This document shows positions 15,201-17,388 of a stretch of DNA of 32,000 bases, in pieces. The DNA is taken from the NCBI RefSeq assembly GCF_035285525.1, contig NZ_JAYKGW010000065.1, positions 1 through 32,000 of the forward strand, written 5' to 3'. Position 1 is the stretch's first letter; every line of letters starts with the position of its first letter. The stretch comes from Okeania sp. Its GTDB lineage: Bacteria > Cyanobacteriota > Cyanobacteriia > Cyanobacteriales > Microcoleaceae. Made by a program: the position numbers and the translations under genes. A model generated the notes under the pieces. That model saw nothing but the letters and a program-made list of their open reading frames with translations, did no database searches and had not been told where the DNA came from.

Positions 15201-17388
15201 AATCCAGGACAACCTCTTTACCCGTCTCAAAGGGGAGAAACAAGACCTGATTGCCTATTATACCTTTGACGACGAAAGCCAAACGGAAGTAAAAGACCAC
15301 TCCTATGGGGGCAACAATCTTTCCTTGAGTTACAACGAAAGCAAACCCTACTTTATTATTTCTAACGCTCCCATTAGTGAGGATACAGCCCTGGTACGCT
15401 CGGCTTTAGCAGGAGTTGTCACCCAATTCCAAGAGACGATCGCCACCAGCCCTAGCGTCGAGGAATATGGGGACATACAGTACGATGTCGATGGTAACAT
15501 GACAGGAGTGATGAAACGCTGCCATGGTTACATTAAAGACAATACCTGGTGCTTAACCACCAGTTACAAGGTGGGTAATCTGATTACTGAATGGCTGGGT
15601 CAAGCTCAGTTCGACCCCCAGATTATCGGTTACATCGAAGGCGCACCCCCCATGCCCAGCGAAAACCTCACCGCCGGTCCCATCGATCCAGCGATCGCCG
15701 ATTACAGCAACAGCAATGTTAGTTGTGTAGAAGTGGTGGAAGCGGAAAGTGTCAACTACAATTGTTCGGCATCTATGGAGGTAGGAGCAGATACCGCCTT
15801 TGAATCAGAATCCAGCATGGAAACGGGGTGTGACATGGATATTAACATGGCACCCTTTGGGTTTGGCACCTCTTTCAAACTAGAGAGTAGCTTTGGATCT
15901 TCCGGTGGAAGCAGTTTTGAAGCTTCCAATGGTTGGACAAGCGACCAACGTGTGGGAGTGGGTCGCAACAAGACCGAAAGCACAACGGTATCTCTCAGCG
16001 GTAACTGGGAAGACCCCCTAAATCCTTTGAATTCAGCCTTAGGTCGGCGCTACCAACCTTCCAATATGGGTTTTGCCTTAGTATTATCAGAAACTGCCGA
16101 TATCTTTGCTCTGCGTTTAGAACACAACAACGCTCTGGTTTCCTTCAGCTTCCGACCCAATCCCGACATTCCCCGAGACGTGAATCTTATCCCCTTCCCC
16201 ATCAATCCCCGCTATAGCAAGCAGGGAACCTTGGACGGAGCAGTTGGGTATAATGACCAAGGTAAAGTACTTGACCCGGACTATGCCACCGCCCAAGGCT
16301 ACGGTGAATACAGCTACTTTAAACCCCAAGAAGCCTACAACTTGCAAGACCGCATTCAGAGGGAAGAGCAGGAAATCAAGAGTTATTACCAAAACTTTGA
16401 TGTCAATCCCATGAATAGCGAAGCGGTTCAGAATGCCTCGAAGATGGGAGCTGAGTTTGGTAAAACTTTACTGGGTATGATGGGTTCAACGGGAGGCATA
16501 GTAGGCATGACAACGCCTTTAGGAACCATTGACTTTAGTAGTTTAAGTGAATCCTTTGCCAGCAGCATGAATCTCCCAGAAAAGTTTGGTAAACGCAATA
16601 TCGTCAATACCTATGTTTGGACTGCGGATGGCGGCTTCTATGCGGAGTCCACAGAGATGACACAAATGAAGCAGGAAAGCGTCAGTGGTTCCTTTTCCAC
16701 ATCCCGGACTAGCAGCGCTGGAGTTAGCACGGGATTGGAGATTAATGGTTTTTATAGTTACGATACTGCTTTCAACAGCATGATGGGGGGAAGCATGAAC
16801 TTTACGAAGACCAAGAGTCAGGAGTCGGAGAATTCCTTCAGCGTCGAAGTGACCGCATCTCCACCAGGAGACTTGCAGAAATACGACGAAAATCTCAATC
16901 GGGTTTACGACGAAAACGGCAATCCGGTTTCAGTAGAAGGTAAGGTAGATGCTTACCGCTTTATGACCTTCTACCTAGAACCTGCCAAAGAAAACTTCGA
17001 GGATTTGTTCAACAAGGCGATCGACCCCATTTGGCTCAACCAAAGCAGCCACCCCAATGCCGTTGCTATGCGCCAAGCCCAACAAACAAATAATGCTCCT
17101 CCCTGTTGGCGAGTGTTCCACCGGGTTACCTTTGTCAGTCGGCTGTTACCCAGTTTCTCAGATGAAGCTCCTCCATCTCTCGAAAGCACCATGAAAGAGG
17201 AGAATATCAATAGCAACTGGGAACTGATTCAAATATTAGACCCGTTTGTCCGCAATGAGACGGATGATTTTACTACTTTCTCCGATGCAGTGCATGACAC
17301 CTTAGAAACCTACCTACCGGAGTTACTCCCCTACGAAGATGAGATTACTTACTATGCAGCACTCTATTATGGGGTGACAGACACTTAG
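9268..17388 (+). CDS. Giant (2,706 aa) multidomain protein of unknown function: unassigned beta-rich scaffold, 4 LamG (Laminin_G_3-type) domains, FG-GAP-like propeller, unassigned C-terminal module
   Basis: Single uninterrupted 8,121-nt ORF with ATG at 9268. Only short antisense or out-of-frame ORFs lie inside it. Four LamG start signatures ('L.FDG..DY') are balanced by four end signatures ('G.I.E.R.W'). There are about 6 'FGWSVAI.GDWA.VGAPG...GKAYIF' blades. No N-terminal hydrophobic signal peptide ('MNITDKFTKTYSDKAYKH'). Confidence 0.9.
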   Translation: MNITDKFTKTYSDKAYKHVTTVTHKGVLISFAMDENRRIYYAVLNLNEQDDTKGPLDVNYWPGNPSKLNFTNEISRVGFAIIPPTQMPTVAKESGEEVEPGTLADDEIDPFLSTTARLTANAPFRVISDNQYIYIFRQSIAGDDPDMVFVDTGKNTGSKPTQMAMGRKYMEPKAAFKKNRLRDFRPLLALRGSETPEAVSSFDQTLSDDELIPLVDKNLMVDRFVLTGTELKSKMEVRFKRSRHKSIPQSNKDSLGSQDMQGEYFYEPTQELHFVGQLYEGWFDALLLPTQISGIQRWQFFLYNSKTAEIDSFNVERGSDGLFNTKGTRYYTSPDPEYQDAVYERSPGTCPFSGEPLIPIPPSKSGYGEWALEFDGTDDNVTVPHSDSLDFDQDEDFAIEAWIAVSGEPVDRDIITKWEGSGPYPYAIRYQGNGTVSALRYDGTNHPTLTSTKVINDREYYHIAFVKNGSTLYLYIDGEEQGSTDDTTSGSTKNNVAMYFASRGTGNYFPGQIDEIRIWNRSLSQDEIQEDMNYRLVGNEPGLVGYWRCDEGTGNILHDQTDNGNHGTINGAIWVQSEAPIGDSPGIRRTSFGFEGRTIASSPSAMLYYQQEQAEAGYDDEAKPIKSNARVILGVGTGGPGLDGEQTEEKYVAALDFALSREGKLAQIPDNIQLGEPLESGTEEDLARLQELQQEVEELRRQGGGNLLYHSSEGDCGWSVAIDGDWAMVGAPGATANGIKKAGKAYIFHWDGSNWNLKQTLTPGDDTQTGALFGWSVAINGDWAIVGATYATVNGLGNAGKAYIFHWDGSNWNLKQTLTADAEISAYFGWSVAIDGEWAMVGAPGANPKGKAYIFQGDDSSNWSLKTSLSPGDDAQGMDAFGFSVAINGERAVTGNFDTDSSQVFVYHWESSEWNLEQKITNIYNGSWWSVYSNLSVAISDKYLLIGLAIAECEGKQAAGRVDVYRRNSSSKWEQETTFTAGVDIQENGRFGRSVAIDDVQFITGAPGNASAYYYLQNVPPDLLNEIDELKQKVGNGVALPMHFLHTDPFGLTVSGALLGFAPSQNAPQFLDSTTGNLTLYFRGDQDQFLAAYYNTNTAKTEYKLATELATTNADQLTLVARFAGEETNDTTITVADGDSADFCQVTISNESTGITETWQRVPRKVKQFAAVLNGVANQQVFLDNLATAVSGTVTSLTLTAGAKYALKSGDILVVNGTKVTVASDVERKATEIPINSITLSADVNTAVYVIPYDYQTLATSNRVGDNLENGSLLFAVVPSSIRDDKVKNGTGTRSSAGISSCWVAEAPGDTLSFDGKNDYVALGDGSKLSQFDAKGDLTLETWVLPKTFEGGSRIIHHTSNSSKYSLGLKRQELNSALNFDGSDDYVELPAASIPSGNEITISFWAYGGESLPKNSFIIFAQSDNGDLTNQNRVLSIHLPYGDEIIYFDCGNDGSDFDRIDKQAQESEYKGTWSHWAFTKNATTGEMKIYLNGELWHSEGDKTKPLPASVQVQLGKGANGNYYDGKIDELRIWNRARTQTEIQADMNRRLGGNESGLVGYWHFDQREGNQVKDLTGNGYNGTIHSDPQNVPSPPNLGSCSVIGAVGNLLLESKDLLYCNNWHHLALVYNQSYGLKFDGERDYLDCGNNTILNLQDMTVEVLLQVSSTSQCGILAKGTLNSGDLEQNVPYALYTENGKVIFVFEDENGASYQVETSGVLETNKVYKIAVTRKKYTESIGTGSSAENTFTGTAPDLSSISTWDDVNAKSSDIEKAMQGDYVASQQRGQELANLQSPDSWTNPEFTPGSQIAQWNEVKIYVNGVLEANQSLPPVNPGYNSDSLEIARVGESYLAGAIGEVRLWSVALGAGDIGKKLTGNEYGLVSWWRLEENEGNVAYDSKSSNHGTLKGPEWIKNPHPHSSTLVLYHNGTPMVTNAIDSFSWGDNQFTLGACKSNGQMTEHFWGQLEELRIWKVTRTIEQIQDNLFTRLKGEKQDLIAYYTFDDESQTEVKDHSYGGNNLSLSYNESKPYFIISNAPISEDTALVRSALAGVVTQFQETIATSPSVEEYGDIQYDVDGNMTGVMKRCHGYIKDNTWCLTTSYKVGNLITEWLGQAQFDPQIIGYIEGAPPMPSENLTAGPIDPAIADYSNSNVSCVEVVEAESVNYNCSASMEVGADTAFESESSMETGCDMDINMAPFGFGTSFKLESSFGSSGGSSFEASNGWTSDQRVGVGRNKTESTTVSLSGNWEDPLNPLNSALGRRYQPSNMGFALVLSETADIFALRLEHNNALVSFSFRPNPDIPRDVNLIPFPINPRYSKQGTLDGAVGYNDQGKVLDPDYATAQGYGEYSYFKPQEAYNLQDRIQREEQEIKSYYQNFDVNPMNSEAVQNASKMGAEFGKTLLGMMGSTGGIVGMTTPLGTIDFSSLSESFASSMNLPEKFGKRNIVNTYVWTADGGFYAESTEMTQMKQESVSGSFSTSRTSSAGVSTGLEINGFYSYDTAFNSMMGGSMNFTKTKSQESENSFSVEVTASPPGDLQKYDENLNRVYDENGNPVSVEGKVDAYRFMTFYLEPAKENFEDLFNKAIDPIWLNQSSHPNAVAMRQAQQTNNAPPCWRVFHRVTFVSRLLPSFSDEAPPSLESTMKEENINSNWELIQILDPFVRNETDDFTTFSDAVHDTLETYLPELLPYEDEITYYAALYYGVTDT
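10375..10998 (+). other. LamG domain 1 (concanavalin A-like jelly-roll)
   Basis: 'WALEFDGTDDNVTVPHSDSLDF..FAIEAWI...YYHIAFVKNGSTLYLYIDGEE...FPGQIDEIRIWNRSLSQDEIQ...GLVGYWRCDEGTGN..HGTINGAIWVQS'. Confidence 0.8.
11404..12315 (+). other. FG-GAP-like beta-propeller (about 6 blades), bracketed by two short helical/coiled segments
   Basis: Blades: 'GWSVAIDGDWAMVGAPG..GKAYIFHWDGSNWNLKQTL', 'FGWSVAINGDWAIVGATYA..', 'FGWSVAIDGEWAMVGAPG..', 'FGFSVAINGERAVTG..VFVYHWESSEWNLEQ', 'LSVAISDKYLLIG..GRVDVYRR', 'FGRSVAIDDVQFITGAPG'. Flanks: 'EEDLARLQELQQEVEELRRQ' (about 11314-11373) and 'PPDLLNEIDELKQKV' (about 12325-12375). Confidence 0.75.
11416..11960 (+). repeat. Intragenic tandem DNA repeats (periods 171, 165, 159 nt) encoding propeller blades 1-4
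   Basis: 'ggctggtctgtagccatt' recurs at 11416, 11587 and 11752, with 'ggcttttctgtagccatt' at 11911. Blades 1 and 2 share an identical run of about 68 nt ('gcaggcaaagcctatattttccattgggatggcagcaactggaatctgaaacaaaccct'). Confidence 0.85.
13195..15330 (+). other. Nested LamG array: LamG2 split into three pieces, with LamG3 and LamG4 inserted into its loops
   Basis: LamG2 pieces are about 13195-13380, 14059-14160 and 15019-15330. LamG3 is about 13393-14034 and LamG4 about 14161-15000. The order of signatures is start2, start3, end3, mid2, start4, end4, mid2, end2 (see finding). Confidence 0.65.
15331..17385 (+). other. Unassigned C-terminal module (about 685 aa) with two Ser/Thr/Gly-rich amphipathic segments and one Gly-zipper hydrophobic segment
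   Basis: Segment 1 (about 15760-16015): 'SASMEVGADTAFESESSMETG..FGFGTSFKLESSFGSSGGSSFEASNGW..NKTESTTVSLSG'. Hydrophobic segment (16459-16524): 'GKTLLGMMGSTGGIVGMTTPLG'. Segment 2 (about 16675-16872): 'ESVSGSFSTSRTSSAGVSTGLEINGF..NFTKTKSQESENSFSVEVTASPPGD'. I recognised no known catalytic motif. Confidence 0.5.

Follow-up and report, generated by a model that had tools for sequence, protein, structure and literature searches.

A giant gene with a conserved C-terminal module

The stretch of DNA analysed here (the window) comprises 32,000 nucleotides of the cyanobacterium Okeania sp. (contig NZ_JAYKGW010000065.1, positions 1 to 32,000). It contains an open reading frame (ORF) at 9268-17388 of the plus strand that encodes 2,706 amino acids (aa) plus the stop codon. 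The features described in an earlier note on this DNA lie in this one ORF, and the peptides quoted there are all present in frame. The first 2,000 residues give six Laminin_G_3 (LamG) and five FG-GAP_2 matches in Pfam, while the last 685 residues give none. This C-terminal module, which the earlier note had read as a membrane-inserting, beta-pore-forming-like effector, is a conserved domain family in its own right (Table 1; module positions are counted from aa 2022). In its predicted structure two amphipathic hairpins project from a conserved beta core. We tentatively regard it as a membrane-inserting, beta-barrel-forming unit contributing two hairpins, i.e. four strands, per protomer, a reading to which we give slightly less than an even chance.

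No match to the module was obtained in Pfam (hmmscan, no family at E <= 0.1), NCBIfam, PADLOC or PHROGs, and sequence and profile searches of the PDB matched the upstream LamG domain but not the module. Scanning 21 family members against Pfam at E <= 5 revealed neither a consistent family nor any pore-forming toxin family. The module occurs with 30-81% identity in more than 150 database proteins. A profile of the module alone matches 1,043 clusters (50% identity), of which 698 have E <= 1e-30, and a scan with one genome per species found it in 373 species. The hosts include many filamentous cyanobacteria, the genera Streptomyces, Kitasatospora, Nocardia and Saccharothrix, and Nannocystaceae, furthermore Candidatus Entotheonella, Prochloron, symbiont-like gammaproteobacterial metagenome-assembled genomes (MAGs), Calditrichaceae and Gemmatimonadota.

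Complete family members have 1,846-4,205 aa (median 2,613). The module had been proposed to be the functional end of the giant protein. This position holds for 79 of 104 apparently complete representatives, but in 18 (about 17%) a further 440-1,560 residues follow. Three of these 18 were scanned and carry PKD, LamG and PA14 domains there. The module is the signature domain of the family and not always the end of the protein. The other domains in these proteins (LamG, FG-GAP, PKD, PA14 and ricin) are typical binding modules.

All 104 complete representatives start, at the initiator methionine and without a signal peptide, with an N-terminal domain of about 370 aa, which always co-occurs with the module about 1,500-2,700 residues further downstream. 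The two may interact in the folded protein. The AlphaFold2 (AF2) model of the N-terminal domain has a pLDDT (predicted local distance difference test) of 84 and a pTM (predicted template modelling score) of 0.80. It gave no match in Pfam, NCBIfam, PADLOC, PHROGs or, by sequence, the PDB, and only weak beta-propeller, lectin or sialidase-like matches in Foldseek (E >= 3e-3, template modelling score (TM) <= 0.25). Given these similarities, the idea of a delivered enzymatic effector, as in AB toxins, found no support for this domain. Likewise, no enzyme or effector domain was detected outside the module by the domain scans and the fold search of the N-terminal domain, and a catalytic effector was not found anywhere in the giant protein.

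Partner genes were sought by calling ORFs in 83 related loci, followed by all-against-all BLASTP and clustering. The only ORFs shared across phyla were the giant gene itself and the shadow ORFs antisense to it. A conserved partner gene for secretion, immunity or lysis, or one coding for a chaperone, was not found in these loci, and views of whole plasmids agree. Copies of the gene reside on a megaplasmid of S. clavuligerus, a Calothrix plasmid, a 44-kb Planktothrix plasmid and a 19-kb Nostoc plasmid, annotated solely as 'LamG domain-containing protein'. The gene of the window differs from its flanks in base composition (GC 0.45-0.49 over positions 9001-17000, 0.30-0.38 in the surrounding DNA), which fits a (recent) horizontal acquisition. 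We found no description of the family in the literature on LamG in connection with giant, toxin or pore-forming proteins, Streptomyces, cyanobacteria or Trichodesmium. These giant proteins make up a family not described before, whose members stand alone and are horizontally mobile.

In some genomes the giant gene family is present twice, e.g. on a contig of GCA_030545275.1 and on two contigs of one Crocosphaera MAG, and the records of the S. clavuligerus megaplasmid are matched at two places as well. Several assemblies have the gene called as overlapping pieces, suggesting frameshifts or assembly errors in such long genes.

Table 1. Position of the giant gene, its two family-specific domains and the predicted parts of the module
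Feature	Window position	Module residues	Strand	Basis and remarks
Whole giant ORF	9268..17388		+	2,706 aa; without signal peptide; GC 0.45-0.49, flanks 0.30-0.38
N-terminal all-beta domain (aa 1-372), family-defining	9268..10383		+	Starts all 104 complete representatives; AF2
Conserved module (aa 2022-2706, 685 aa), unannotated domain family	15331..17385	1-685	+	Profile matches; AF2 pLDDT 77, pTM 0.65
Beta core, N-terminal part	15454..15720	42-130	+	pLDDT 82-96; motif YIEGAPPxPSENLT invariant
Long core strand, 31 residues		72-102	+	AF2, pLDDT 82-96
Hairpin 1	15721..16008	131-226	+	AF2 strands 131-163/190-221; base embedded in core
Hairpin 1, arm a, amphipathic	15787..15837	153-169	+	Period-2 p < 2e-4; aromatics enriched at 153, 157
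Hairpin 1, tip	15838..15879	170-183	+	Hydrophobic Gly-rich loop, APFGFGT here
Hairpin 1, arm b, amphipathic	15880..15930	184-200	+	Aromatics enriched at 196, and at 202 just past the arm
Most conserved compact beta core	16048..16320	240-330	+	AF2 compact core 240-314; pLDDT 93-97, column entropy about 0.8-1.4 bits
Conserved amphipathic helix	16324..16392	332-354	+	KPxEAYxLKxRIxRE...; AF2 and alignment
Hypervariable insert, helical in AF2, 67 aa here	16393..16593	355-421	+	Holds the Gly-rich stretch 16459-16524
Hairpin 2	16657..16857	443-509	+	AF2 strands 443-471/475-509
Core, C-terminal part	16939..17148	537-606	+	Motifs GKVDAYRFMTFYL, DPIWL, CWRVxHRVTFVSR
Acidic helical tail, after Pro-rich linker	17158..17385	610-685	+	Helical 617-680; AF2, composition

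The beta core and the acidic tail

The AF2 model of the module was built with 63 homologues and has 339 residues above pLDDT 90. It has five strands of about 30 residues and a confident beta core (pLDDT above 90), from which the two hairpins project. The compact part of the core carries the motifs ALVxSxTAD, PNPDIPxDxN and FPINPRYTKQGTLDG. For the C-terminal part AF2 predicts strands at 539-552 and 592-604, and R594, H597, R598, T600 and R604 are invariant. The three 'conserved-looking strands' named in the earlier note do rank among the best-conserved blocks of the family, and AF2 models them as beta-strands. A comparison of the two hairpin-containing halves by hhalign yielded no convincing internal duplication (P = 0.002, probability 13%).

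Modules from different phyla are 40-55% identical. About 40 residues are invariant, and these include many charged ones such as H597 and R594/R598/R604. Such conservation is unusually high for a pore-forming domain and could mark an active or binding site. The core might thus be an enzyme or a specific ligand-binding domain, e.g. a carbohydrate-active one, to which the hairpins are accessory and for which the LamG, PKD and PA14 arrays target the substrate, their role in many secreted glycan-active proteins. The very high identity across phyla and the many invariant charged or polar residues (E103, E111, N112, D257, D279, D283, N285, D302, D315, D540, R543, D565, R594, H597, R598 and R604) would suit this, as would the company of LamG, PA14, ricin and PKD domains, which is typical of carbohydrate-active proteins. 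On the other hand, no enzyme family in Pfam, NCBIfam or the PDB was matched by sequence or fold, about 115 residues of amphipathic hairpin with conserved length have no obvious role in an enzyme, and a signal peptide is missing. We therefore consider an enzymatic or ligand-binding core quite improbable.

The acidic helical tail described in the earlier note was recovered, too: the last 76 aa contain 18 Asp or Glu but only 2 Lys or Arg, and AF2 models them as helical. The tail belongs to the module even where the latter is internal, as profile matches extend to position 673-675 of 676 despite the long C-terminal extensions. A function as type I secretion signal, which has to be located at the extreme C-terminus, was considered and rejected. 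Since the tail is internal in 17% of the complete members and the family is also found in Gram-positive bacteria, it is not a C-terminal export signal.

Two predicted amphipathic hairpins of conserved length

The two long Ser/Thr/Gly-rich stretches which had first drawn attention to the module are the distal halves of hairpins 1 and 2. Within the first, FGTSFKLESS...NGW lies at 15862-15936 and NKTESTTVSLSG at 15967-16002, so that the start given before (about 15760) was some 100 nucleotides early. The second lies at or very near its stated place, with VSGSFSTS...NGF at 16681-16752 and NFTKTK...PPGD at 16798-16872. No other 60-aa windows of the 2,706-aa protein are as rich in Ser, Thr and Gly: the two stretches reach 47% Ser+Thr+Gly, compared to a mean of 25%. 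Many homologues have an ordinary alternation of hydrophobic and charged residues at these places, indicating that the Ser/Thr/Gly richness is partly peculiar to this orthologue.

The long extended hairpins which the earlier note suggested to look for are present in the AF2 model (Table 1). Each amphipathic arm comprises 17 residues. In hairpin 2 the arms (455-471 and 475-491) are joined by a tight turn (472-474), while the tip of hairpin 1 shows a conserved motif at 172-180 (hydrophobic-x-A-P-hydrophobic-G-hydrophobic-G-hydrophobic), of which G177 is invariant and G179 nearly so in an alignment of 21 sequences. The alternation of polar and hydrophobic residues claimed for the single sequence is barely above chance (shuffle p of 0.008, 0.07, 0.08 and 0.13 for the four arms) but becomes clear in the family profile: all four arms exhibit a strict two-residue hydrophobic periodicity (p <= 4e-4 each, column permutation in the 63-sequence alignment). 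Ala, Phe, Val and Leu make up the hydrophobic face, and Ser, Gly, Asp, Glu and Lys the polar one (18-30% Ser, 11-23% Gly).

Collars of 7-8 residues (146-152/201-207 and 447-454/492-502) lie between the arms and the core. Both faces of a collar are polar or charged, and the family column profile gives the collars a mean hydrophobic fraction of 0.10-0.26 and no periodicity. Aromatic residues (Phe, Tyr, Trp) are enriched just past the collars, at positions 153 (52%), 157 (44%), 196 (54%), 202 (75%), 455 (87%) and 457 (59%). A collar polar on both faces followed by an amphipathic arm is expected of a barrel that is exposed to water above the membrane and to lipid within it, and not of a beta-sandwich.

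As to the conservation of the Ser/Thr/Gly-rich segments, length and amphipathic register are kept, but the sequence is variable and the tips are modelled with low confidence. The lengths are nearly fixed across homologues (52-65 residues in hairpin 1, 69-72 in hairpin 2), whereas the column entropy is 2.0-2.8 bits in the hairpins compared to about 0.8-1.4 bits in the core. The pLDDT falls below 50 at 157-206 in hairpin 1 and at 453-483 in hairpin 2, leaving the distal 55-60 residues with low confidence. Segments that refold when they insert typically keep their pattern while the sequence drifts, and they are modelled with low confidence. In sum, the module has the generic design of beta-pore formers, i.e. 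amphipathic hairpins of membrane-spanning length whose pattern is conserved in homologues.

A Foldseek search of the PDB with the module gave no confident match (best E 7.7e-5, range to 1e-2; TM <= 0.14; root-mean-square deviation (rmsd) 25-42 A), and thus no confident non-membrane fold either. The top 50 matches are all secretins (GspD, InvG, BfpB), beta-toxins in the pore state (aerolysin in lipid particles or amphipols, alpha-hemolysin, CytK, LukGH, Vibrio cytolysins) or soluble aerolysin-type proteins (parasporin-2, lamprey immune protein (LIP), proaerolysin). The model accordingly resembles a protomer with barrel-forming hairpins. The list does not establish homology, since long hairpins have little structural complexity. 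In BFVD, which contains viral structures, there was no match at E <= 1e-3.

The same hairpins could serve a protein that never enters a membrane. Their arms might bury the hydrophobic faces against each other or on a partner, e.g. in a strand-swapped, eight-stranded soluble barrel or sandwich, and the module would then be a stalk for oligomerisation, acting as rigid spacer or multimerisation hub of a giant multivalent lectin, adhesin or matrix protein. Amphipathic alternation alone does not imply membrane insertion, the rest of the protein contains binding-type domains only, and the producers are filamentous, gliding or matrix-rich. The internal position of the module in some members, followed by PKD, LamG and PA14 domains, would suit a scaffold as well. 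Yet the collars and the Ser/Gly-rich polar faces are atypical of a stable soluble sandwich, and variable hairpins of low pLDDT next to a tightly conserved core are not expected of a permanently packed hydrophobic core. Neither in the PDB nor in BFVD did Foldseek find a match to adhesin stalks or fibre proteins, and the protein has neither the signal peptide nor an anchoring motif of a surface protein. On balance, we regard a soluble stalk as rather unlikely.

The hypervariable Gly-rich insert

Between the hairpins, GKTLLGMMGSTGGIVGMTTPLG was found exactly at the coordinates given before, 16459-16524. It had been described as the only markedly hydrophobic stretch of the protein, with the spacing of a glycine zipper. 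The first of these descriptions does not hold. With a Kyte-Doolittle mean over 19 residues (KD19) of 0.99 it is only the ninth peak of the protein and far below the value of a transmembrane helix. Furthermore, it is part of a hypervariable insert whose length between sequence anchors ranges from 14 to 117 aa in 183 homologues, and its columns are occupied in just 27% of the 63 aligned homologues.

A Gly/Ala-rich segment with KD19 >= 1.6 is present in the insert of 30 of the 183 homologues, e.g. VGAAVGAAVAGPIGLVIGA and LVMGGPIAAVAGALVGAGI. At KD19 >= 1.2 the number rises to 55, and in 29 the insert is shorter than 25 aa. In about a third of the family members, e.g. P0069, P0213, P0076 and P0045, the segment is strongly hydrophobic, Gly/Ala-rich and often centred on a proline, with KD19 up to 1.94, well above that of the protein studied here. 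Being strong in some homologues and absent from others, it is an optional accessory and not a defining element. At this occupancy and with so few strongly hydrophobic inserts, the family has no conserved hydrophobic GxxxG/AxxxG helix of the kind that marks glycine-zipper toxins.

Alternatively it might be that the module acts on membranes without forming a beta-barrel, by peripheral attachment or by insertion, using the tip of hairpin 1 (APxGFG, similar to a fusion loop), the Gly/Ala-rich helical segment or the two together. Such a mechanism would be alpha-type or ionophore-like, the long hairpins being merely an arm to reach out. The conserved hydrophobic tip motif and the strongly hydrophobic, glycine-zipper-like segments in 30-55 of 183 homologues are in line with it, and a putative glycine-zipper motif has been described in helix alpha4 of ionophoric toxins of contact-dependent inhibition (CDI) systems (PMC11630599). 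However, the segment is weak or absent in most of the family, including the protein studied here, and the nearly insert-free homologues would have to do without it. Four register-matched arms with collars and an aromatic belt would be left unexplained, and the structural matches included neither a class II fusion protein nor an alpha-pore-forming fold. This mechanism thus appears improbable to us.

A putative lectin-armed pore former

We return to the module as a membrane-inserting unit that forms a beta-barrel. If so, the lectin-like domains would concentrate the protein on a target surface, the conserved beta core would then oligomerise, and the two hairpins of each protomer would add four amphipathic strands to a barrel across the membrane. 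Where a member has the Gly/Ala-rich segment, this may serve as an auxiliary membrane anchor, and the acidic helical tail may be an autoinhibitory piece. The protein could be released by lysis like other very large toxins without signal peptide, which is a guess.

Besides the design of the hairpins and the conserved pattern, which bear out the earlier pore-like reading in part, the strongest arguments are the Ser/Gly-rich polar face, the recurrent Gly/Ala-rich segment and the uniform, though weak, Foldseek neighbours. To these we add the gene context, i.e. a mobile, self-contained cargo rich in binding domains that is found even on plasmids of 19 and 44 kb. It is plausible that the module inserts beta-hairpins while its fold is an undescribed one outside the known families.

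Several observations weigh against a pore. Apart from the conservation of the core discussed above, the weak Foldseek matches may reflect nothing but generic long hairpins. The hairpin tips have low confidence, and AF2 might turn any alternating sequence into an extended hairpin. Amphipathic strands occur in soluble sandwiches and barrels, too. About 10-12 residues per strand span the bilayer in alpha-hemolysin or aerolysin, so that arms of 17 residues are longer than strictly needed, which would also suit a soluble stalk. Two hairpins per chain differ from the single one in aerolysin and binary toxins, and at the sequence level the module belongs neither to the aerolysin/ETX-MTX2, binary-toxin, leukocidin or MACPF families nor to any other. 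The part of the earlier argument that was built on a glycine zipper depends on a non-conserved insert, and the module is not at the end of each protein. Finally, there is neither a signal peptide nor a conserved secretion partner, leaving extracellular delivery unexplained.

Taking the family as a whole, one may go further and propose a new superfamily of giant, self-contained, lectin-armed pore-forming toxins with a core fold unlike that of known beta-pore formers, a four-strand stem and, in part of the members, a glycine-zipper helper. They would spread horizontally on plasmids and GC-anomalous islands between filamentous cyanobacteria, actinomycetes, myxobacteria and symbionts of invertebrates, and could plausibly be used against grazers, hosts or competitors. 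This wider proposal is possible, but we put it forward with more doubt than belief.

If the module does form pores, it would represent a new structural class among beta-pore-forming proteins and provide a function for more than 1,000 giant proteins now labelled 'LamG domain-containing protein'. The hosts are of ecological and biotechnological importance, comprising bloom-forming and symbiotic cyanobacteria, Streptomyces, myxobacteria and symbionts of sponges and tunicates. It would then have to be asked how proteins of 2,000-4,000 residues without a signal leave such different cell envelopes, and the module might serve as a new large-barrel scaffold in nanopore work. Should it be a soluble stalk or an enzyme instead, the finding would still be of use, as a large domain family, sharply conserved and paired with a conserved N-terminal domain, is missing from the databases.

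Other features of the window

The genes around the giant gene are unrelated to it: a class II ribonucleotide reductase that contains inteins, a histidine kinase and what look like toxin-antitoxin remnants. The B12-dependent (class II) ribonucleotide reductase (1,859 aa, 1432-7011, plus strand) is split by inteins and gives Pfam matches to Intein_splicing, LAGLIDADG_3 (three stretches), Hom_end and RNR-II_ins_dom. Along with the low GC of the flanking DNA, this gene would point to a filamentous marine cyanobacterium as the source. A PIN-domain protein (113-541, minus strand) and two overlapping ORFs in the gap upstream of the giant gene (7757-8282, minus strand), which jointly cover DUF433 and DUF5615 sequence, look like toxin-antitoxin remnants. 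Downstream, 24990-26615 (minus strand) encodes a 541-aa protein with 12 matches to the RTX calcium-binding nonapeptide repeat. It is unrelated to the giant gene and likely a type I secretion substrate. An HtrA-like protease (Trypsin_2 and PDZ) is encoded at 27025-28227 (minus strand).

In the giant protein itself, the FG-GAP repeats at about 11380-12300 (aa 705-1010) include near-identical consecutive units, and AGKAYIFHWDGSNWNLKQTLT is present twice. The alignment to an 85%-identical relative, P0122, is gapped around this region, P0122 having extra residues. Both findings suggest that the repeat number may be changing by recent duplication or deletion. The middle region that follows (about 12295-13197, aa 1010-1310), including ...TITVADGDSADFCQVTISNESTGITETWQRVPRKVKQFAAVLNG..., has no Pfam match. 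It looks conserved in other family members, because several truncated representatives start with a similar sequence.

Comparison with known pore formers

In tests of sequence and fold the module fails to group with aerolysin/ETX-MTX2 proteins, binary-toxin B components, MACPF/cholesterol-dependent cytolysin (CDC) proteins, leukocidins, secretins or glycine-zipper toxins, and it is therefore not to be filed under any of these six families.

The Tc toxin subunit TcA and the large clostridial toxins are signal-less proteins of several thousand residues in which a dedicated module for membrane insertion is joined to several binding domains. The giant protein shares the size, the binding domains and the missing signal peptide with them, but their insertion elements are alpha-helical or hydrophobic and not beta-hairpins. 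A kinship was discarded, as none of their Pfam families was matched. A partner gene resembling TcB/TcC or a holin is not conserved next to the giant gene either.

Secretins are the top Foldseek matches (E 7.7e-5; probability 0.90 for BfpB), yet with a TM of 0.10 or less. In a secretin protomer long hairpins make up a four-stranded sheet, and the chain ends in a C-terminal helical S-domain; the module likewise ends with a helical tail. Secretins, however, are outer-membrane channels of the Gram-negative producer itself, whereas the present family is abundant in Actinomycetota, with Streptomyces, Kitasatospora and Nocardia, which lack an outer membrane. There is no match to the Secretin family of Pfam.

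Like alpha-hemolysin and the leukocidins, the module has a Gly/Ser-rich amphipathic stem, and chains of their heptameric and octameric pores recur in the Foldseek list. In these toxins the stem is one short hairpin with about 11-12 residues in each strand. The Leukocidin family of Pfam was not matched, and the TM is about 0.05-0.06 when normalised to the query and at most 0.12 when normalised to the target. As for binary-toxin B components of the anthrax protective antigen (PA) type, the module has no Binary_toxB or PA14 profile match, and no PA-type chain is among the top 50 Foldseek matches.

With the aerolysin/ETX-MTX2 group (including lysenin, parasporin-2 and LIP) the module has in common an elongated all-beta structure, strands of about 30 residues and a Ser/Thr/Gly-rich amphipathic element. 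Aerolysin pore chains are among the best Foldseek matches (E 6e-4 to 7e-4, probability up to 0.77), followed lower down by parasporin-2, LIP and proaerolysin. The TM of 0.08-0.14 (rmsd 25-36 A) is far from the value of about 0.5 or higher of an aerolysin-type fold, and no Aerolysin or ETX_MTX2 profile was matched, either by the module at E <= 0.1 or by 21 members at E <= 5. Moreover, the module is far larger (685 aa, within a protein of about 2,700 aa) and has two register-matched hairpins instead of the single insertion hairpin per protomer.

Four strands per protomer are the arrangement of CDCs, MACPF proteins and gasdermins and not that of aerolysin. As expected from the earlier note, which had seen no MACPF signature, neither a MACPF nor a Thiol_cytolysin profile matches the module in Pfam (21 members at E <= 5 included), and none of these proteins is among the top 50 Foldseek matches. 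The core fold seems unrelated. Beta-pore formers in general cross the membrane by amphipathic beta-strands, and CDCs do so with two hairpins per protomer, whereas aerolysins and haemolysins provide a single beta-sheet each (PMC9558359). The hairpins of CDC/MACPF proteins are helical in the soluble state (PMC9558359), unlike those of the module, which are predicted to be extended. The number of amphipathic hairpins predicted per chain is nevertheless the same, and in both cases the hairpin sequence varies while its pattern is kept. In both, too, a helical segment adjoins the (in the module putative) pore-forming part and in the module may, by analogy, play an autoinhibitory role.

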